From: Candidatus Thorarchaeota archaeon
Lineage (GTDB): Archaea; Asgardarchaeota; Thorarchaeia; Thorarchaeales; Thorarchaeaceae
NCBI GenBank assembly: GCA_048884785.1
Contig: JBHLQM010000033.1
Coordinates: 1 to 34,821 of the forward strand
Reading direction: 5' to 3'
DNA length: 34,821 nucleotides
Shown piece after piece: positions 2,121 to 13,855 of this stretch. The notes under the pieces are model-generated. The model saw only the letters and a program-made list of their open reading frames with translations, was not told where the DNA came from and searched no databases. Position numbers and translations under genes: made by a program. Positions within the stretch are counted from its first letter, which is position 1. The number at the start of each line of letters is the position of its first letter.

Positions 2121-2270
2121 TTTTTCTCTTTCTCCTCACAATTCTATAGAGAACAGAGATACCGAGCACAGAGGTGTTATCATGTGCTCTGAAGCAATAA
2201 CCTCGGTGCCTGCCGAGAACGCACCCCGTCGGGTAGCAAGCACTCTCCTCATTCCGCGTTCTCTACATAA
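2121..2270 (-). promoter_or_regulatory. Structured 5' leader of the S8 protease; candidate cis-regulatory RNA switch
   Basis: Several complementary segments in the minus-strand RNA: UAGAGAAC(GC) 2265-2256 pairs with GUUCUCUA 2154-2147 or GCGUUCUC 2222-2215; GUGCUUGCU/GGCAGGCAC 9-bp stem; GAGCACA/UGUGCUC; UCUCU(G)UUCUCU can pair with the SD region GGAGAAAGAGA 2135-2125. Confidence 0.5.
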
Positions 2271-2519: not shown

Positions 2520-3647
2520 CTATTTCCTTGCCAGCTTCTTGACTCCATCGACAATCTCATGAACCATCATTATGGCTCCAATAAGCTCGACCTTTGGTGC
2601 TTCCCTTTCATCGTCCGGTCGTCCTGATATCCGTCCCATTGCTCTGCCAAGTCCTTCAATAAGACCCGAAAGTGCCTTCTTGGTTTCATTATCGAGACCA
2701 CTTGATCCAATCTGAGATATGAGTTCAGCCAGATCCGAAATCACGCTATCAGACACTTCAAGAGCGGTTTCAGATCTTCGAGTATAATCGTTAATCAAAG
2801 ATTCTGTTTTCTTTAGTTTCTCTTCAAGTTGTTGCATCTTTGAAGCAAGCTCACTATCCGGCAGCCCTGAAGGAGCTTGAGCCTGAGGTGGTGCTTTTGC
2901 CCCCGAGCTTTCTAACATGAGCTGAAGGTCGGCGATTTCAGACTGCAATCTACTTATTGTTTGGTCTTTCTTTGAGATAGTTGTCAGAAGCTCCTCTTCA
3001 GCAGAGGAATCAGGAGTTTCTCGCAAACGCGATTCCATTTCGGCAATTGAGGAATCTCGTTCTCCAACCGAAACTTTCAGTGCTTCAAGTTCTGAATTAA
3101 GTAAGGAAAGTGACTCCTCCTTCTCTTTGAGAAATTCATTGAGTCTCTTGTTCTCAGCCGAGAGTTCTCGATTCTCCTTAGCCTTTGACTCAACTGAGGA
3201 GGAAATTTCCTTCATTTGACCTCGTAGTTGCTCAAAATCAGGATTCGGTGGATGAATGACATATCTAGCCATAAGTGTAAAGATGACGACTACACTGAAG
3301 AGATAGATCAATGAATACACTATGCTATAGGCGAACGCCATATTTGAAACACGCTGAAGAATTGCAATGAAGACATCGTATGACCCAAAAGTTAATCCTT
3401 CGGGACCCCACCACATCGAGCCAAATCCAGCATATAGGACAAGAACTAATGATGATACTACACCAAGTATACCTATAGCAAGAGTGGCGTTCCTTCTACG
3501 CTCTTCTCTTGGAAGGTATCGTTGATAAAGGAGGAACAGTATACTACCCATTAGCATGGGAAGAACATAAGGGAGCACCGCCACAATATTGCTCCCAATT
3601 TCTGTAAATGTTATGAGCGCTTCAATTTCATGAGTCGGATTTATCAT
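2520..3647 (-). CDS. Membrane protein with 3-4 N-terminal TM helices and a long coiled coil
   Basis: 375-aa ORF with AGGAGG SD. Hydrophobic segments in the first 130 aa, then a heptad-rich E/K/L/S region. Confidence 0.85.
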   Translation of the reverse strand: MINPTHEIEALITFTEIGSNIVAVLPYVLPMLMGSILFLLYQRYLPREERRRNATLAIGILGVVSSLVLVLYAGFGSMWWGPEGLTFGSYDVFIAILQRVSNMAFAYSIVYSLIYLFSVVVIFTLMARYVIHPPNPDFEQLRGQMKEISSSVESKAKENRELSAENKRLNEFLKEKEESLSLLNSELEALKVSVGERDSSIAEMESRLRETPDSSAEEELLTTISKKDQTISRLQSEIADLQLMLESSGAKAPPQAQAPSGLPDSELASKMQQLEEKLKKTESLINDYTRRSETALEVSDSVISDLAELISQIGSSGLDNETKKALSGLIEGLGRAMGRISGRPDDEREAPKVELIGAIMMVHEIVDGVKKLARK

Positions 3648-4072: not shown

Positions 4073-4253
4073 CTAGTAATACACTCCGTGTAGTGGTTGC
4101 TTGCACTACAATATAATATACACCTCAATCTTTCTTTACGTCACTTCTCGTTGAATCCGAGCTTAACCAATTACCTCCATTTTTGCTGTCTCAGCCTTCA
4201 AGCAAAACCTTAACTTATATCCAATGAACCCACGTTCTGAAGGACGTCCTACA

Positions 4254-7154
4254 ATGTCACACATCACCAGAGCCCCATATAGCCTATTTGCACTTGCAGT
4301 AGTTCTTGCACTACTGGTTATTCCTATCTCTGTACCAAATGCCTACGGTACAGGGAGAGAGAATACCTCATCTACAATAATAGAGCCTGTTCTTCAGGAT
4401 ATGATAGCTGCGAATACAGACCAAGAGAAGCTCGCAATCATAATTCAATTTCCTGATTCATTTGATTCTGTGCAAATGACTGAAACCCTAAGGAACGCTA
4501 ACGTAAAGGGACTCGACATCAGAACGGTCTTCGATGTAATTCCCGTTACATCAGCATACGCATCACCGGAGGCAATACAGGATCTCACTCATATTGAAGG
4601 GATTACTGCACTCAGCCTTGACAGGAAAATTATCATTGACACATCCTCCGATGTATTTGAATTATCTCAAGTTGCTGGCACCAATGGCTATGTCCATCCA
4701 GATAAAACACTTGGAGTTGATCCTCTTTGGGCTCAGGGATTCAATGGTACAGGCATAACCGTTGCAATAGTTGATAGCGGGGCGGACGGGTCACACGTTG
4801 ACTTTCAAGACAAGATAATTGGTTTCATTGACCTTGTTGGTGGGTTGACTGATACAGATCCATCCGATGGAATCAATGCATATGATGATAATGGTCATGG
4901 AACTGCATGTGCATGGCTAGTTGCCGGAAGTGGTGCCGGGACGGATGGCAAATATACTGGGCTTGCACCTGGTGCTGATCTGCTAATTGTCAAAGCCCTT
5001 GATTCTACAGGAGTGGCAGATGACTCCGTGATTGCCGAGGGAATTCAAGCCGCAATAGATTTCGGAGTGGATGTTATCAGCTTGAGCGTTGGTGGGGAAT
5101 GGATGGATAATCCATTGATACCAGAACCCTCAGCCCAAGTTGTTAGAGCAGCTATCGATGCAGGGATTGTGGTTGTAGTTGCAGCCGGGAACTCGGGTCC
5201 TGCTACAGAAACAATAACCACCCCAGGTGTAGTTGAACACGCGATAACAGTGGGAGCATCAATTGACTCGATTGACTCAGTTCCCTTTAGTAGCCGAGGG
5301 CCTGTTAAACGAACTTTCAGGGACCCCCTCGGATACTTCACAAAACCAGACGTACTTGCTCCGGGATACTTCATACTATCAGGTATCATTGATAATCCTA
5401 ATCCAAACGAATACCCGATTTATAATGAATCCCAGTTTTCGGCCAAATACACACTTTGGTCTGGAACGTCTGCATCCTGTCCTCAGATTGCCGGACTTGC
5501 AGCCATTCTCTTGGATAAATATCCAGCTCTAACACCGATTGAAGTAAAGGCATTCATTATGGCAGGAGCAACAGACCTTGGAATTGATGCAATGGAGCAG
5601 GGATATGGTTTAGCCAATGCTACTAAATCATCAGAACTAGTTAGCTCTACTTCAGGCATTATCACAATTGTGTCACCACTTAGATATCCGACACTGCCAG
5701 GAACAGACCGGGTGTTTGTAATTGGGGATGATAGACCACCCCAAAATGTGACCGTTATATCAACTGTAAACAGAGGCTACGTGGATCTGCAAGCAACTGG
5801 GAATGCGTCTGATTTTATTGTGACTGATGAGCAAACTTTCGTGACCGTGGGCCAGACTTACTTTTCAATCAAACTTGAGGTTCCATTGAATCTGCCACTT
5901 TCTGCTCTGGGTAGATACACAGGGAAGTTGGAGATGGTGGATGATAGCACGGTGGTTGCATCCATGGAGCTCAATCTATATGTGACTGCCTATGGAGGCC
6001 GACTTCTTGTCGATATGGGCCATCATTCGTCACAAGATCCAGATGATCCAACATACTATCGTTATTTTGGAAACTATCTGCGCGAACAGGGAATGAACAT
6101 AGAAACCTATCCCACGAACTGGCAAGACACCATCTCAATTAGGCCTATTGACACAAATGCTCTTGCCACGTCTGAAGTGTTCATGATAATGGACACGGAG
6201 AATTCATATTCGGACTCCGAAATCTCGGCCATTCATGCATTTGTAGAAGATGGAGGCACTCTTCTGATTCTATCTGAAGGCTTTGATGTGACGAATAATG
6301 TACCTGCTTTTGCCATTGACTCATACAACAAGATTCTGGAACCCTATGGTATTCAATGCGAAGAAAACTGGATTGGAGCTGGTGCAGGTGGTGTCTATGG
6401 AGCAGACGCTGGAGGTGCAGTTGAGAATGATACCCTCACTGAAGGTGTTAGAAATCTGTTCATTCTAACCGGAGGAACGTTGTCAGTAGACTCTTCAGTT
6501 GCAGGAGCTGAAGGTCTCATATGGACTGATGCAGCAAGAACCCATGCGCTGCTGGCAACTGCTAGTATGGGCAAGGGGAAAGTAATCGCCCTATCAGATG
6601 GTTCTATTCTTTATGATACCACAATCTATGATGCCATTACTCTTGGCGCGGACAATCTTAGACTTTTGAGAAACATAGCGCAGAATGTACTCTCCGGAAT
6701 TCCCAAGATTTACGATGTGCAATTCAAATATGGAAACATCGGAGAGCCTGCGAACTTCACTGCATTCATCTTTGATGAGAACATTGAAAGTGTCGAGATA
6801 TCTCTCCATGACTCAAACGGGCAGGAAATTGCAGCTCCTGTAGTTGAATCACTAGGATACAAGTACTATGTTGGTTTCACACTGGAACAAGCAGGCTTCT
6901 ATGAGATCGCGATTACTGCTACCGACGTTGACGGGAATGTCAGATCGTATATCAAAACATTCCTTGTTCCTGTGCCTGCCCTTGATGATACTGTATTGAT
7001 GGGAGTCTTATATGGACTTCTTGCAGTAGTTGGTGTTGCACTAGCCTATGTTGCTATTCTGAAATTCGGAGGAAACCGGAAAAGAAGGCGAATAGTGGAA
7101 AGAGAATGGTCCCCGCAATGGGAAGATGAATCAGGTCCACCATCTATTGAATAG
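4254..7154 (+). CDS. Membrane-anchored S8 serine protease with Site-1-protease-like architecture (prodomain, catalytic, Ig-like, DUF4350/GATase-like, Ig-like, TM)
   Basis: Triad [22 protein letters not shown]; oxyanion AAGNSG; signal peptide; C-terminal TM plus RKRRR. Start at 4254 or 4224. Confidence 0.92.
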   Translation: [966 protein letters not shown]

Positions 7155-8446: not shown

Positions 8447-11400
8447 TCAAGAGATTCCTATGTCGTCATCTCTTCTCGTACGAGTTCCATATCTTCGTGC
8501 GACATAATAAATGATAACAAGAGCTAATCCAATACCCCCTATAAGGATTGCATTGGAATAGTCCTGAATCACAGTAATAGTTCCCATATGCTGTGACAGT
8601 GTACCGCCAACTTTAGCGACAGCCACTGCAAAGACACTATAGGTGGAAACTGCAAGACCTGATGGTGATATATCGAAATCATAGATACCATCATTTCCAT
8701 TCAAGGTCAGGTTTAATGACGAGCCGAAGTCCGGTACAAATGAGAGCCCAACTTCTTCAGCAAGAAGGTGTCCTTGAACGACTATCCTACCTGTAATCCT
8801 CTCGGATATAAGAAATCCAATTCTGACAATGCTCTGATCTAATGTTGCTTCGAGGATTTTAAGCTGCAATGCACCTCCACTTGATAGCATTATTGGAGGC
8901 AAGGTTAACTCATATGACTCGTCATTGATACTGAGTACCAAGGATAGAACGCTGGTTTCGATGTATTCGGATATGTTGAAGGTTTTGATGATTGTATAGA
9001 CTCCTGTTTCTGAAATGGTGTCAATAACAGAGATGCCACCATCTACGATATTGAAATCAATATCCAATAAATCAGGATTAGAGTCCTTGTCCGAAATAGT
9101 AACATTGACGGAGAAGAGAGTTCCTTCATACAATATCTTCACATCTTCTATCAGAGGGCCCCACTGATTTTGCAGTACTATCTCTGGCGTGTCATCCAGC
9201 AATTCATCCGTTTGATTGCCCGTGATAATCTGTAGGCTCCCATGAGTAATGGAAGAATCATGTTCAACGGTAATATACACCGCTGTGCTTTCGTTGTACC
9301 ATGAAGCATAGCCTGCTGGAGTAAATGAACTGCCGGACCACTCTAAGACTGATGCTTCACCATCTGTGAGCACTACTTTCATGTCAATTCCAGTTTGACC
9401 AGATGCCATCGAAGAATCCAGATTCCATTCAATCGTCAGCTTATTTGATGAATTGAAATTCGCCGTACCATCCATTTCAATTCTAAACCTTGTTTCTTCG
9501 GTCTGCAAGTATGCTTTTACATTTAGAATATCAATTCCCGGATTGATGGATGGCTCCGTGGACTCAGAATGAACCGATGGTACATCATTCCAGTAAATTG
9601 GACCATCTGACGGTGTAAGTAGATATTGCGAAGACAACAGAGGAGAACAAAGACCATACCCCCAGGAATTTGAGGGAGGGGTGAAGTGAGAATCATATCC
9701 ACCAGCCCCTTGAAGCAGGGCTGAGAGTGAATTCCAACCCTGTCCGTTGCCTGATGCTTGTTGAAGAAGTGCCATGACTCCGGCCACATGAGGAGCAGCC
9801 ATGCTAGTTCCGCTTCTAGTAGTCCATAATGAAGACAGACTGTTGAATGCTGCACGTATTACGTCCCCGGGTGCCGTAACCGTAGGTTTGGCTACACCAT
9901 CAATTCGTGGTCCAACACTTGATGATGAGCTTATTCCCTGAGTCTGTTCATTATAGGATGCAACTGTGATTCCTAGATCTGAGGTTCCTGGTGAGCTTAT
10001 TGTTCTTGAATAATCCAGATTGGATGCGAACCTCATACCTGTTCCGTCCCAGAGGTTGTCCCATGCGTATCCGTCCACCCATATACTATTACCGCTTGGA
10101 TTAGTCATAGTAACGGTCCACGATCCAGTGACCCAGTCATGGTACTCTTCTGATACTTGAATTATAATCCGATTTGTGCCCCTGTCACTGATATCAGGAA
10201 AAACGTTGGCAGTAATATTTGGCTCATTCAAAACAAAAGGGGAGTTGGCAATTGATTCGAATGCACCCAGGTCGATATCATCCCCTTCTGGCGGGGTCAG
10301 AATGAGGTGCTCATCATTATTATCGCTTCTCCACAGTATGTTAAGGAAGGAGTTGTCAGGAGGACTATGTACTGATAAGGTTGCACTAACCTGACTTCCG
10401 GATGGAACTTCAAATCGCGCATGTTTTGGCCTAGTACCAAGATTACCAGCAGCCAATGTACAAACTGCTCCTCTCGTATTTAGTGCCTCACTTATCGCGA
10501 GATCTTCGAGGTCTGTACCATCAAGAAAACCCAGATAGCTTGAGAATGACATATTGATGACACTTGCCCCGTTTTCAATTGCAAACGCTATTCCATCGAG
10601 AACATCTGCAGAAGTTAGAGGACTTCGAATTATTACGAGATCGGCGCCTGGCGCAACCCCCACCCATGATGTCATGCCAATTTGACCACCGGCAACTATG
10701 GATGCAACATGAGTTCCGTGACCTATAGTGTCCGTATTTGTAGGAGCCGATGTGAGGTTCACTCCTCGATAATACACATTGCTGCTATGTTGGTCATATA
10801 ATACGGCTATTTTCGACTCGCCAAGAACTACTACTGGTTCTGAAGATAGTGATATGAAGCTGTCATTATTTAGGTCTATACCGCCGATCCACCGATCACC
10901 CTCTGAAAATTCAAATAGACCACTCCCATCAACATCTATGAACATATAGTCATCCGAATAATCGATAGTTGAACCTGTTTGTCCAGTCACGGTACTTATT
11001 GGACCTTCATTTGGATCGGCAAAAAAATCTCCATCAATGTCAACATAGAAATCTGAGCCGCTCGGTATCACCGTCAATTGCCCTGTACTTGCCCTCCAGA
11101 ATGCTGGATGAAGCCAGGTCGCTCCAGTATCAATCACTGCAACGGTTATGCCTGTTCCATCTATGGGCAACCCATCACGCTCTAAGCCTGTCCATACTTC
11201 AGGAACATCGATGGCAGGAACTGAAGAAGATAATGATGGGAAAAACTGCTTAGAGCCAGAAGAAGCTTGAAGAAGTCCAATAGTACCGAGACTATCTAAG
11301 GATGTTATATCTCCGACATGTGCAAGATAGAGAGATCCTACATGAACAGGATTTCCATTCCTTCGACTAAATGATATTCCCATAGACTCGATTAATGAAA

Positions 11401-11629
11401 TTTGATCTGAAGAGAGTTCGTTTTCGAATTTTAGAACTGCCTGAATTCCAGATTGATGTGCCAAAGTTTGCCCCGTTTCATAGCGAGATAATTCCATTCT
11501 CAGCATGGATTCGATATGTGGTGACGAAGGAACCTGGGAGTTTGAAGACACTATTACTCCAGTCGAAATGCCCATGGGTACTTGAATTGCTGATAATATA
11601 AGTAAAATTACTAGTAGTCTCCTGTACAT
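8447..11629 (-). CDS. Secreted, C-terminally anchored S8 protease with a DxDxDG-rich insert and a second internal insert
   Basis: VAVIDTG, HGTHVASIVAG, AAGNLG, SGTSMAAPHVAG. Signal peptide MYRRLLVILLILS with GGTGGAG SD (start 11629 preferred over 11698). C-terminal TM and basic tail. Confidence 0.93.
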   Translation of the reverse strand: MYRRLLVILLILSAIQVPMGISTGVIVSSNSQVPSSPHIESMLRMELSRYETGQTLAHQSGIQAVLKFENELSSDQISLIESMGISFSRRNGNPVHVGSLYLAHVGDITSLDSLGTIGLLQASSGSKQFFPSLSSSVPAIDVPEVWTGLERDGLPIDGTGITVAVIDTGATWLHPAFWRASTGQLTVIPSGSDFYVDIDGDFFADPNEGPISTVTGQTGSTIDYSDDYMFIDVDGSGLFEFSEGDRWIGGIDLNNDSFISLSSEPVVVLGESKIAVLYDQHSSNVYYRGVNLTSAPTNTDTIGHGTHVASIVAGGQIGMTSWVGVAPGADLVIIRSPLTSADVLDGIAFAIENGASVINMSFSSYLGFLDGTDLEDLAISEALNTRGAVCTLAAGNLGTRPKHARFEVPSGSQVSATLSVHSPPDNSFLNILWRSDNNDEHLILTPPEGDDIDLGAFESIANSPFVLNEPNITANVFPDISDRGTNRIIIQVSEEYHDWVTGSWTVTMTNPSGNSIWVDGYAWDNLWDGTGMRFASNLDYSRTISSPGTSDLGITVASYNEQTQGISSSSSVGPRIDGVAKPTVTAPGDVIRAAFNSLSSLWTTRSGTSMAAPHVAGVMALLQQASGNGQGWNSLSALLQGAGGYDSHFTPPSNSWGYGLCSPLLSSQYLLTPSDGPIYWNDVPSVHSESTEPSINPGIDILNVKAYLQTEETRFRIEMDGTANFNSSNKLTIEWNLDSSMASGQTGIDMKVVLTDGEASVLEWSGSSFTPAGYASWYNESTAVYITVEHDSSITHGSLQIITGNQTDELLDDTPEIVLQNQWGPLIEDVKILYEGTLFSVNVTISDKDSNPDLLDIDFNIVDGGISVIDTISETGVYTIIKTFNISEYIETSVLSLVLSINDESYELTLPPIMLSSGGALQLKILEATLDQSIVRIGFLISERITGRIVVQGHLLAEEVGLSFVPDFGSSLNLTLNGNDGIYDFDISPSGLAVSTYSVFAVAVAKVGGTLSQHMGTITVIQDYSNAILIGGIGLALVIIYYVARRYGTRTRRDDDIGIS

Positions 11630-11839
11630 TGTTCTCCACCGATTATTATTGAAGCGAAGCAAATATTGAACAGATATGCTTTCTGTTTCCCGAATCATTG
11701 AATGAACGGATCAATATGTGTCTTAGTTCTGCCGTGAGCAGGTCAATATGAAGTTTATAGAGTTTGGCCCCTTGATTTCAATTAGATAACCGCAAGACCC
11801 ATTACAGATTTATGCATCGGAGAGAGCTAGTGCTTTGAC

Positions 11840-13855
11840 TTGAGTAGCATAGATGTCCCACCTGAATTTATGCATATGAGGCAACGCGCCAACATTCCTT
11901 GGAATGAAATCCTAGATGGTACTAGAAAAAGAGTGAAAGGTGGACAGGGCAACTTTGCAGCCTTCACTGATGTTTCGATTGATTTTGCAACAAAGGAATG
12001 CATGAGGGAGGAGCAATCTTCAGATTTAATTGTCCTGGGAGTCCAAGCATGTCTAACACGAGGTAGACTCGCTGAAGCATTATTCCTCTCCACGGGATCC
12101 AAAAGTGTAGAGGTCCTTAGTCTTAGGTGCATCGTCCTATTTGCCCTGTCGGACTCAGAGGGACTGAGAGATGCCTTTCAGGAAATTGAACAGGCGGTCA
12201 ATCAGGACTCTCCTCCTTCTGACCAAGTGCGACTAAGTACAGCCAAGGTTTTACTTGCTGCGGCTGAAAGGGACACGAGCGTCATTGTGGCGGTAATGGA
12301 GTTTGACAATCTTCTCGAGACCTACCCAGAACAGGTTGAAGATCCTCTAACTGAAACCATGTTCACACTCTATGTTGTCGGAGACCTTCTGCGCGTTGTA
12401 GGTCAAGAAGCTCGAGCTTCAAGAATTAATGATACTCTTCAAGAAATGGCTCTAAAAGGCAATCACAGGATGTTTCTAGCTTTATCTGAAAATCTTAGAG
12501 GAAATGTATGTAATCTATCAGGTGATTTTCAAGGCGCTGAGAAACACTATCTTCGAGTTAAAGAGATTAGTGAAATGCTATCGTTCAATCTGGGACTGGG
12601 GATGGCCTACAATAATCTGGGAACATTGCGTGCGAATTCACTGAAATTCGAAGATGCACTGGACTTTTTCAAGAAGGCATACAAACTAATGGAAATGGAT
12701 GTTGCGAAAACCGCTCCATTGGCGAATATGGGAGAAATAGCTCTAAAGCTCGGGAGATACAAAGAGGCAGAAGAGTACCTCAAAGAAGCAGTTCGCATCG
12801 AGGAGAAAACGAAGTTTGGGACAATTGAGGTCTATGCTTGGTACATTATGCTTCTCCTAAAAACAAACCGGGATAAAGAAGCAAAGAAGATTCTCAAGAA
12901 GACCAAAGATCTGATAGAAACATCAGAAAAGCCGCTTCATAAGGCCGCGTTCTTGATGGCCAAAGGATCCTATGATGCCTTCCGAAAGAAATGGAAATTG
13001 GCAATAAAATCCTTTGAGGGAGTTGTAAGAATAGGCAGGGAGAAGTCGCTATTTGAGCTACTTGTGAAAGGTGAAACATACCTTGCAGAAACTCATCTTC
13101 AAGCCTATCTGGACGAACAGAGCGAGGAAGAACTAAACCGAGCCATTTCTCATATTGATGATTTAATCCAAATTGCTAAGGAACAGGGTCTCCAGCACCT
13201 ATATGCCGAATCTTTACTGTTGAGAAGTGATATCTTCAGGCAGACTGACAAGAAGATGGAAGCCAAGGGGTCTGCAGAGCGTGCATTAAGTGTTGCGAAA
13301 TTTGTTGAAGACATAAGACTTCAACAACAGGCGGAGCAACGAATCAACCAAATTGAAGGCATAACAGATAAGGTATCCATCGCTCCCGACATCACAAAGA
13401 AGATGCAGAGAGTTGGAGCTTTCAAGCCAGCAGGACAGCTAAAAGTAATACCCAGACCTGATCTGCACTTCCTGCTGACCCTTAGTAGGGAATCAGGACT
13501 CTCCGAGTATGTGTATCATTTTGACTCAGAGATTGAAATGGACAGCGGTCTAGTTGGAGGATTCATCTCAGCTATTACAACATTCTCAAGCGAGGTAATG
13601 GGAAAGATAGGAATGCTCAGATCCATTAATCATGAGGGGTTTACTCTGATGATGGAACATACAGAAACGCGAATTTATGCATTAATTGCCGAACAGGAAT
13701 CATTTGATACAAGATATCTTCTTCGTGAGTTTGCTCAACAGTTCGAAGAGCTCTATCCTGAAGTGCAACTGGAAGCTCTCAAAGAAGACACTTTTGCAGC
13801 TGCGGATGATCTTGTCATTGAGATGTTCACAATCCGTCAAGATGTTGCAGAATGA
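11840..13855 (+). CDS. TPR-repeat protein with C-terminal longin-like domain
   Basis: TPR repeats (AYNNLGTL...FEDALDFFKKA; LANMGEIALKLGRYKEAEEYLKEA). C-terminal SGL...DSGLVGGFISAITTFSSEV...LREFAQQFEELY matches the Asgard longin pattern. TTG start. Confidence 0.85.
   Translation: MSSIDVPPEFMHMRQRANIPWNEILDGTRKRVKGGQGNFAAFTDVSIDFATKECMREEQSSDLIVLGVQACLTRGRLAEALFLSTGSKSVEVLSLRCIVLFALSDSEGLRDAFQEIEQAVNQDSPPSDQVRLSTAKVLLAAAERDTSVIVAVMEFDNLLETYPEQVEDPLTETMFTLYVVGDLLRVVGQEARASRINDTLQEMALKGNHRMFLALSENLRGNVCNLSGDFQGAEKHYLRVKEISEMLSFNLGLGMAYNNLGTLRANSLKFEDALDFFKKAYKLMEMDVAKTAPLANMGEIALKLGRYKEAEEYLKEAVRIEEKTKFGTIEVYAWYIMLLLKTNRDKEAKKILKKTKDLIETSEKPLHKAAFLMAKGSYDAFRKKWKLAIKSFEGVVRIGREKSLFELLVKGETYLAETHLQAYLDEQSEEELNRAISHIDDLIQIAKEQGLQHLYAESLLLRSDIFRQTDKKMEAKGSAERALSVAKFVEDIRLQQQAEQRINQIEGITDKVSIAPDITKKMQRVGAFKPAGQLKVIPRPDLHFLLTLSRESGLSEYVYHFDSEIEMDSGLVGGFISAITTFSSEVMGKIGMLRSINHEGFTLMMEHTETRIYALIAEQESFDTRYLLREFAQQFEELYPEVQLEALKEDTFAAADDLVIEMFTIRQDVAE

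Follow-up and report, generated by a model that had tools for sequence, protein, structure and literature searches.

Upstream of a large secreted protease gene of Candidatus Thorarchaeota archaeon lies a leader whose segments can pair with one another in several ways, raising the question whether it is a regulatory RNA and in which state it would leave the ribosome-binding site of its gene. The window analyzed here is the whole stretch of 34,821 nucleotides (contig JBHLQM010000033.1). An earlier note, made from its letters alone, had described the interval 2121-2270 on the minus strand as a riboswitch-like translational switch built from four segments (A to D), in which C could pair either with A or with D, the latter overlapping the Shine-Dalgarno (SD) sequence. 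Almost nothing is known about gene control at the mRNA level in Asgard archaea. A literature search, with thin coverage of subscription journals, found no cis-regulatory leader for them but only SECIS elements and rRNA expansion segments.

The gene behind the leader

The leader precedes an S8 subtilase gene, the 5' half of which is contained in the window (Table 1); for the 3' half, a tblastn search points most likely to contig C103. A full orthologue of 1,584 aa consists of a signal peptide, the S8 domain, a beta-sandwich stalk, a Thr-rich linker, and a C-terminal membrane anchor. Its beta-sandwich domains were modelled with a pLDDT of 86, and a fold search with the C-terminal half of the protease returned generic Ig-like matches only (TM-scores <0.2). 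By its predicted architecture, the protein is a membrane-anchored, surface-displayed S8 protease of ~1,600 aa. Such an enzyme resembles the STABLE protease of Staphylothermus marinus, a large archaeal surface-bound subtilisin tied to peptide fermentation (PMC5744192). The Thorarchaeota protease differs in a beta-sandwich stalk of its own and in being anchored to the membrane at its C-terminus.

Ranked by codon bias toward a reference set of five highly expressed genes, the protease is 7th of 1,753 ORFs (crude ORF calls), and a second measure places it 15th of 1,758, beside actin and EF-1a. An S8-like motif is shared by three other ORFs of the same genome, all of which rank below 1,100. Judged from its codon usage, the gene would thus belong to the most highly expressed ones of Thorarchaeota.

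In the orthologues, the gene has its own promoter and ends with a strong terminator, i.e., a GC hairpin followed by a U tract. This bacterial-looking arrangement (GC-rich hairpin, then a pyrimidine/U tract) is kept 3' of the protease stop codon in L081-L086, L175, L188, and L288. The gap between the protease start at 2120 and the upstream gene (3647-2520) measures 398 nt in the window. This upstream gene is uncharacterized and found at the same place in almost all orthologous loci; a family search with its 375-aa membrane/coiled-coil product gave nothing above the cut-off. Downstream of the protease, relatives carry a convergent 2-hydroxyacid dehydrogenase gene. Two further large S8 proteases are encoded within 12 kb, at 4224-7154 (plus strand) and 8447-11698 (minus strand, codon-bias rank 1,572 of 1,753), both without this leader, and a 671-aa TPR-repeat protein follows at 11840-13855 (plus strand). 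Paralogues of 2,300-2,600 aa (L029, L034, L039, L076-L078) carry a PF00496 ABC-type solute-binding domain fused to this S8 protein, which suggests that proteolysis is coupled to peptide capture. Asgard archaea have been reported to degrade peptides (10.1101/858530).

Promoter geometry and extent of the leader

The block AAUCAC follows the first T of the TATA box at a distance of 29-31 nt in 56/59 leaders, while the spacer between both is poorly conserved (0.61 in genus g1). The base at position -1 is a pyrimidine in all 59 leaders. Because the TATA spacing is fixed and the preceding base always a pyrimidine, transcription is predicted to start at the first A of AAUCAC (2279), 2 nt ahead of helix P0. 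From this predicted start it follows that the folded element would be the whole 5' UTR; positions 2279-2121 on the minus strand would hence represent the complete 5' UTR of the protease, with a predicted length of ~159 nt. The start that had been expected near 2280, behind a TATA-like sequence at 2310-2303, agrees with this promoter-based prediction. Likewise, the coordinates of A (2265-2256), B (2222-2215), C (2159-2147), D (2135-2125), and the ATG (2120) were all reproduced, as was a 9-bp stem, 2243-2235/2214-2206, with two G-U pairs. The interval 2121-2270 itself was right with respect to the segments but misses the first 9 nt of the transcript with the near-invariant AAUCAC (2279-2274).

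AAUCAC at +1 could also be an initiator, and conservation is higher in the 5' blocks than in the strands they pair with. Both observations would suit conserved blocks that act at the DNA level, as an initiator and as binding sites for transcription factors directly behind the promoter, with the RNA fold being of secondary importance. We regard this as very improbable since the spacing of the blocks varies, a conserved palindrome is missing, and G-U-preserving as well as compensatory changes point to an RNA on the minus strand.

Table 1. Features of the protease leader and its flanks in the window (positions are those of the window).
Feature	Positions	Strand	Observation
S8 subtilase gene, 5' half	3-2120	minus	Pfam PF00082; catalytic D, H, and S motifs in the translation; cut by contig end
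GUGA (P0 3' strand, 2139-2136), SD AGGAG (2136-2132), and segment D (2135-2125)	2125-2139	minus	SD free with probability >0.8 in 56/59
Segment C: pyrimidine linker and P1 3' strand (2154-2146), potential anti-SD	2146-2159	minus	pairs with A with probability >0.8 in 54/59
P3, variable hairpin, core 2189-2183/2170-2164	2163-2191	minus	cross-genus test 57/59; present in single-sequence folds
Linker J2/3: (G)GAGGU, U-rich run, UGC	2192-2205	minus	conserved in most genera; GA lost in most g1 leaders, kept here
P2 arm: stem 2243-2235/2214-2206, inner hairpin 2234-2223, bulged B 2222-2215	2206-2243	minus	8/8 modelled pairs with double changes
Purine block GAGGAG(A), unpaired and identical to the most common SD	2244-2250	minus	GAGGAG in 60/60 rows of alignment A3
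Segment A: P1 5' strand (2266-2258) and conserved GC (2257-2256)	2256-2266	minus	P1 95% paired; 5/9 pairs with double changes
P0 5' strand UCAC	2274-2277	minus	pairs with GUGA by the SD; 97.5% of cells paired; P0 probability median 0.93
Predicted transcription start, first A of AAUCAC	2279	minus	inferred from fixed TATA spacing and pyrimidine at -1
Archaeal promoter: BRE-like element (2319-2311) and TATA box CTTAATAG (2310-2303)	2303-2319	minus	conserved in orthologues
Upstream gene, 375 aa, membrane and coiled-coil protein	2520-3647	minus	syntenic in relatives; outside the leader

A leader restricted to Thorarchaeota and to one gene

A DNA search among relatives within the genus showed that the leader, not the coding sequence, is best conserved (74-80% identity). 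The leaders of orthologues selected by protein similarity share a common block order, i.e., BRE-TATA, ~23 nt, AAUCAC, GAGAAC-GC, GAGGAG, a variable arm, GAGGU, a second variable arm, GUUCUC, GUGA-GGAG, and AUG. In all, about 67 distinct homologous leaders were collected; most counts refer to 59 leaders. Of 86 family genomes, 56 contain a single copy each according to a covariance model (55 strong matches and one cut by a contig end), and among the best 24 genomes of the order, 22 were matched. One of the two missed genomes belongs to a sister family, the other is without a clear orthologue. Leaders outside the training set of the model scored 49-128 bits.

All complete ones among the ~67 leaders stand before this protease gene. 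No spread of the motif to a second gene family was seen, and blastn, nhmmer, and the covariance model revealed no second copy in the own genome. Within other Asgard families, the model gave six weak matches of 20-29 bits, compared with at least 57 bits for true members, and these were treated as chance. S8 homologues in other Asgard classes and the non-syntenic Thorarchaeota paralogues L036, L041, L079, and L080 are without the motif. Pattern scans were extended to genome and metagenome collections; among the matches listed, the strong named ones are Thorarchaeota, and the others derive from unnamed or Promethearchaeota-labelled bins of the same loci. A viral collection contained no match in the same type of scan, and a related-locus search using a single protein found nothing.

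An Rfam scan at E up to 10, covering the window and 16 homologous loci, gave chance matches outside the leader only, so that the cross-check proposed in the earlier note returned no catalogued RNA family. A previous description of the motif was found neither in Rfam nor in the literature searched. The comparison of these loci indicates that the leader is a real, new structured cis-element restricted to Thorarchaeota. Of the proposal made in the earlier note, the part concerning a new structured leader of a surface S8 protease is thereby borne out by ~67 homologous leaders and their covariation. Because its consensus is defined, its gene context clear, and both short and long variants exist in nature, this family-wide motif is testable in vitro without cultivation.

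The resemblance to the glycine riboswitch aptamer that had been noticed before did not extend beyond the window sequence, in which alone a local GGAGAG-stem-CACCGA likeness is found. The leader shares a three-stem junction and a GGAGA-like run before the second stem with RF00504 but remains below the 32-bit cut-off and does not conserve the pocket strands CACCGAAG and CUCUCAGG. In addition, it is single and always located before the S8 protease, with no tandem aptamer and no glycine-metabolism gene. RF00504 was not matched here at E up to 10 and in 0/61 family genomes, with the positive controls being detected; CACCGA occurs in only 2/59 leaders and CUCAGG in 0/59. That the leader is a degenerate glycine aptamer is thus scarcely conceivable.

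A closed fold predicted to leave the SD free

Fold energies were calculated with ViennaRNA (pseudoknot-free). Single-sequence folds agree on P0 (UCAC:GUGA), P1 (A:C), and a three-way junction bearing the hairpins P2 and P3. Folding above chance, which the comparison with shuffled controls was to establish, was confirmed with z = -2.3 for 2290-2110 and z = -3.3 for the predicted transcript; values below -2 were obtained for 52/59 homologues. The competing stems GAGG/CCUC and ACCGAG/CUCGGU that had been assigned in addition turned out to be peculiar to the window sequence.

In an alignment of 60 rows, fitted to the covariance model and therefore biased toward it, 91.7% of the cells are paired and double changes occur in 13/21 pairs. 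The covariation score of this alignment amounts to 0.418 compared with 0.178 +/- 0.010 in shuffles and ≤0.11 in slid registers. Because the alignment leans toward the model, strands were also swapped between genera in an alignment-free test. Native pairing was better than foreign pairing in 58/59 leaders for P2, 57/59 for P3, and 51/59 for P1. Even within nine g1 sequences the closed fold covaries (0/500 shuffles as high). P0 does not covary because it is nearly invariant. P1 forms with a probability >0.8 in 54/59 leaders, the SD is free with a probability >0.8 in 56/59, and opening of P1 costs a median of 5.7 kcal/mol (59 leaders). The covariation supports one fold, with the SD probably left free, over the alternative. 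The 3' end of the 16S rRNA in the genome of the window is GAUCACCUCCU, and AGGAG is found at -17 to -13 genome-wide. SD sequences of this genome are not generally accompanied by GUGA at -19, so that the simplest reason for its presence here would be that it pairs with the 5' end.

Based on these data, we tentatively favor, with slightly less than even confidence, a leader that is ON by default, stabilizes its mRNA, supports translation, and carries a conserved putative binding site. UCAC at the 5' end would pair just upstream of the SD and thereby bury the 5' end, while A would pair with C and keep this anti-SD-like strand off the SD. Two variable hairpins would branch off the three-way junction, and SD and AUG would remain single-stranded directly 3' of the stem. 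With SD and AUG exposed and the 5' end buried, we propose that the mRNA would be stable and well translated. The near-invariant unpaired GC, GAGGAG, and GAGGU would constitute a putative binding or tertiary site supporting the fold. This default-ON reading is in line with the computed dominance of the SD-free fold and the cost of opening P1, with the covariation and cross-genus pairing of P1, P2, and P3, with the occurrence before one gene family only, and with the codon-bias ranks. It also fits a predicted start just before P0 in front of a gene whose orthologues have their own promoter and terminator.

Two further observations in its favor come from outside the motif. In the sister family (G037), a plain hairpin also closes the 5' end. 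Furthermore, the slpA 5' UTR of Lactobacillus provides a precedent, its stem-loop stabilizing the mRNA and exposing the ribosome-binding site (PMC10221546, PMC6482533). Both are long folded leaders of a very highly expressed surface-protein gene with the 5' end paired and the ribosome-binding site exposed, here by prediction. The Thorarchaeota leader differs in being an archaeal three-way junction with near-invariant unpaired purines and a latent anti-SD; the likeness is one of analogy and does not imply homology. If the leader is static or protein-bound, it would show how Thorarchaeota sustain a high output of a protein-scavenging surface enzyme, and would flag this enzyme as a likely major component of the envelope. 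However, a merely static stabilizer has no need of invariant unpaired blocks. Neither does it account for the 5' strand of the P1 core, fixed though its partner mismatches, nor for the capacity of C to mask the SD and the retention of unpaired B in g1 (see below). An argument from the blocking of 5' exonucleases is weakened by the reported absence of aRNase J from Asgard archaea (PMC10946056).

Several minor features accompany the closed fold. An additional helix formed by the GC and U-rich linkers is suggestive in L049, L068, and L035 but reached only 28-30/59 in the cross-genus test, in which three g5 anchors were mis-set. Leaders of g6 (e.g., L043, L059, and L073) have an invariant ACCC just before A, unpaired in the closed fold, which might lengthen an alternative, g6-specific pairing that involves the start of P3. 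The sister-family orthologue L085 (G037), missed by the model, has one long 5'-terminal hairpin instead of the junction, with the 5' end still closed; its leader keeps the A:C core and has a repeat of A beside its SD. A conserved uORF or leader peptide was rejected as the distance from A to C falls into all three frames (32/16/11) and the upstream AUG of the window is present in 7/59 leaders.

An alternative state and its possible use in genus g1

The pairings on which the proposed switch was built can all form in the window, i.e., A:B with 8 bp, A:C with 8 bp (11 in the minimum free energy, MFE, structure), and C:D with 11 bp and one bulge. The fold combining A:B with C:D is indeed the best alternative, with -48.4 compared with -54.4 kcal/mol. 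Two near-isoenergetic states were thus not found, the A:C state being favored by 6.0 kcal/mol here and by a median of 5.7 kcal/mol across the family.

Of the supposed anti-SD/anti-anti-SD logic, the first part holds, with C being able to mask the SD region by at least five contiguous bp in 58/59 leaders and the SD becoming paired in 37/59 if P1 is forbidden. The second part does not hold for the family. B provides at least 7 bp in only 10/59 leaders, belonging to the genera g1, g2, g10, and g11, and is missing in most genera. Family-wide, A:B and C:D show no covariation, and the cross-genus test gave 24/59 and 23/59, respectively. Covariation is also lacking for these pairings within g1, where 163/500 shuffles scored as high.

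Genus g1 nevertheless preserves the elements of the alternative state. B is kept in 8/9 g1 leaders, A:B is 97% and C:D 88% paired, and bulged B is conserved at 0.93 compared with 0.77 for the flanking stem. In a nascent RNA of 66-70 nt, A:B is the MFE structure, and it stays near P2 in energy until C is made. A:B might also form as a pseudoknot on intact P2, with -45.1 being calculated for the open state and -11.7 for the A:B duplex before loop costs. A natural mutant is found in L361 (1331-1503, GCA_975965375.1), a second, non-syntenic gene copy beside a methylmalonyl-CoA mutase gene. In the leader of this copy, A and B are retained, the P2 stem is lost, and an altered GAGGAG block now pairs with pyrimidines before C. 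A kinetic switch is credible for genus g1, although it is not a family-wide rule.

These data bear on a reading in which a protein or a trans-acting RNA drives a translational switch. A factor on the GAGG repeats or on A would open P1 or trap A cotranscriptionally (on B in g1), and the freed C would pair with the SD and turn translation off. The C:D helix available in nearly all leaders, the pairing percentages of g1, and the competition of A:B with P2 throughout synthesis agree with it, as do the conservation of A and B in L361 after loss of the P2 stem and that of A, C, and the repeat of A by the SD in the G037 leader. Furthermore, the invariant GAGGAG is repeated at the SD. The switch would have to reach an OFF fold 6 kcal/mol uphill, through pairings lacking covariation and a segment B absent from most genera; as to CsrA and L7Ae as binders, the genome (91% complete) contains no CsrA and the leaders no consistent k-turn. 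We therefore judge this reading as rather unlikely, and the default-ON leader stays our tentative preference.

The invariant purine blocks and their candidate binders

Approximately 19 highly conserved nucleotides cluster at the junction (GAGAAC-GC, GAGGAG, and GAGGU). Internal GAGGAG is more conserved than the true SD and altered only in the duplicated copy L361. Similarly, the GAGAAC core of A is more conserved than its partner strand and fixed despite a partner mismatch in L038, L050, L051, and L068. A total of 45/59 SDs read GAGGAGA, representing a repeat of the internal block. The duplex of internal GAGGAG with the 16S 3' end amounts to about -7 kcal/mol, equal to the real SD, whereas the invariant first G of the block is not explained by 16S pairing. 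No sign of GAGGAG pairing with the early coding region or the 3' UTR was observed. The conservation pattern indicates that something reads the invariant unpaired bases, and a cellular protein or the 30S anti-SD would be a more likely binder than a metabolite.

Aptamers usually show conserved junction nucleotides between covarying stems of variable length, an arrangement that the ~19 conserved nucleotides of this junction and their flanking arms match. Together with the position adjoining the SD, this led us to consider a new class of metabolite riboswitch, which would be the first in Asgard archaea. Its pocket, e.g., for an amino acid or peptide, would be the purine-rich three-way junction. 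Exchange between A:C (SD free) and C:D (SD hidden) would match the output of the main surface protease to nutrient supply, a protein-scavenging enzyme being a plausible target of such feedback. If metabolite binding holds true, the leader would add a new class to the very few riboswitches of the archaeal domain. With the GC-to-GAGGAG spacer varying from 2 to 9 nt and GAGGU being eroded in most g1 leaders, the junction is loose for a small-molecule pocket. The P1 fold, moreover, dominates without ligand and leaves an ON switch little to stabilize. Given also the single gene family, the lack of an Rfam relative, and the absence of c-di-AMP and c-di-GMP synthases from the genome (91% complete), we consider this possibility improbable. 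The leader shares conserved junction nucleotides, covarying variable stems, proximity to the SD, and an SD-masking strand with translational riboswitches, represented in archaea mainly by TPP and fluoride types. It differs from these in the lack of an Rfam match or known ligand and in an alternative fold that is uphill and devoid of covariation. As of 2021, tests of natural archaeal riboswitches had been confined to the fluoride riboswitch of Thermococcus kodakarensis (PMC8241225).

Known binders of similar leaders were examined as well. A c-di-GMP or c-di-AMP riboswitch was discarded as Rfam gave no match and no GGDEF or DAC domain was found in the genome (G000, 91% complete). Control by CsrA/RsmA was rejected in the same way; GGA repeats are present, but this genome, at 91% completeness, contains no PF02599 match. 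A k-turn bound by L7Ae was dismissed with the 3-nt-bulge geometry occurring in only 11/59 leaders, over three registers, none of which fits the window. The l7ae mRNA leader is likewise an archaeal 5' UTR, and tandem G-A pairs near the SD are possible in the Thorarchaeota leader. The l7ae leader, however, has no structure before it is bound, upon which the SD becomes hidden (PMC6298567), whereas the Thorarchaeota leader is folded with the SD free and has no 3-nt bulge consistently framed by helices. The cry3A STAB-SD of Bacillus thuringiensis, which blocks RNase J1 (PMC4113751), is comparable in that an SD-like block lies a long way upstream of the start codon and could pair with the 16S 3' end; the difference lies in the aRNase J reported to be absent in Asgard archaea (PMC10946056).

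Diverged proteases behind the same leader

To compare alleles, the window protease (3-2120) was set against L002, L005, L376, L377, L378, L043, and L059; in the protein tree, row L364 was discounted owing to a wrong reading frame. Between L005 and L377, identity amounts to 92% where the upstream protein ends, to 85% in the leader, but to 36% at the protease N-terminus. The same pattern is found for L002 and L376 (leader 94%, protease 36%). At least three deep protease allele groups (28-45% identity) occupy one syntenic locus and are spread across genera, whereas leader and upstream gene follow the genus. Most likely, then, coding cassettes of a major surface protein are exchanged while its promoter and leader stay in place, which is what one would expect of a protein exposed at the cell surface. 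The leader would accordingly work independently of the allele.
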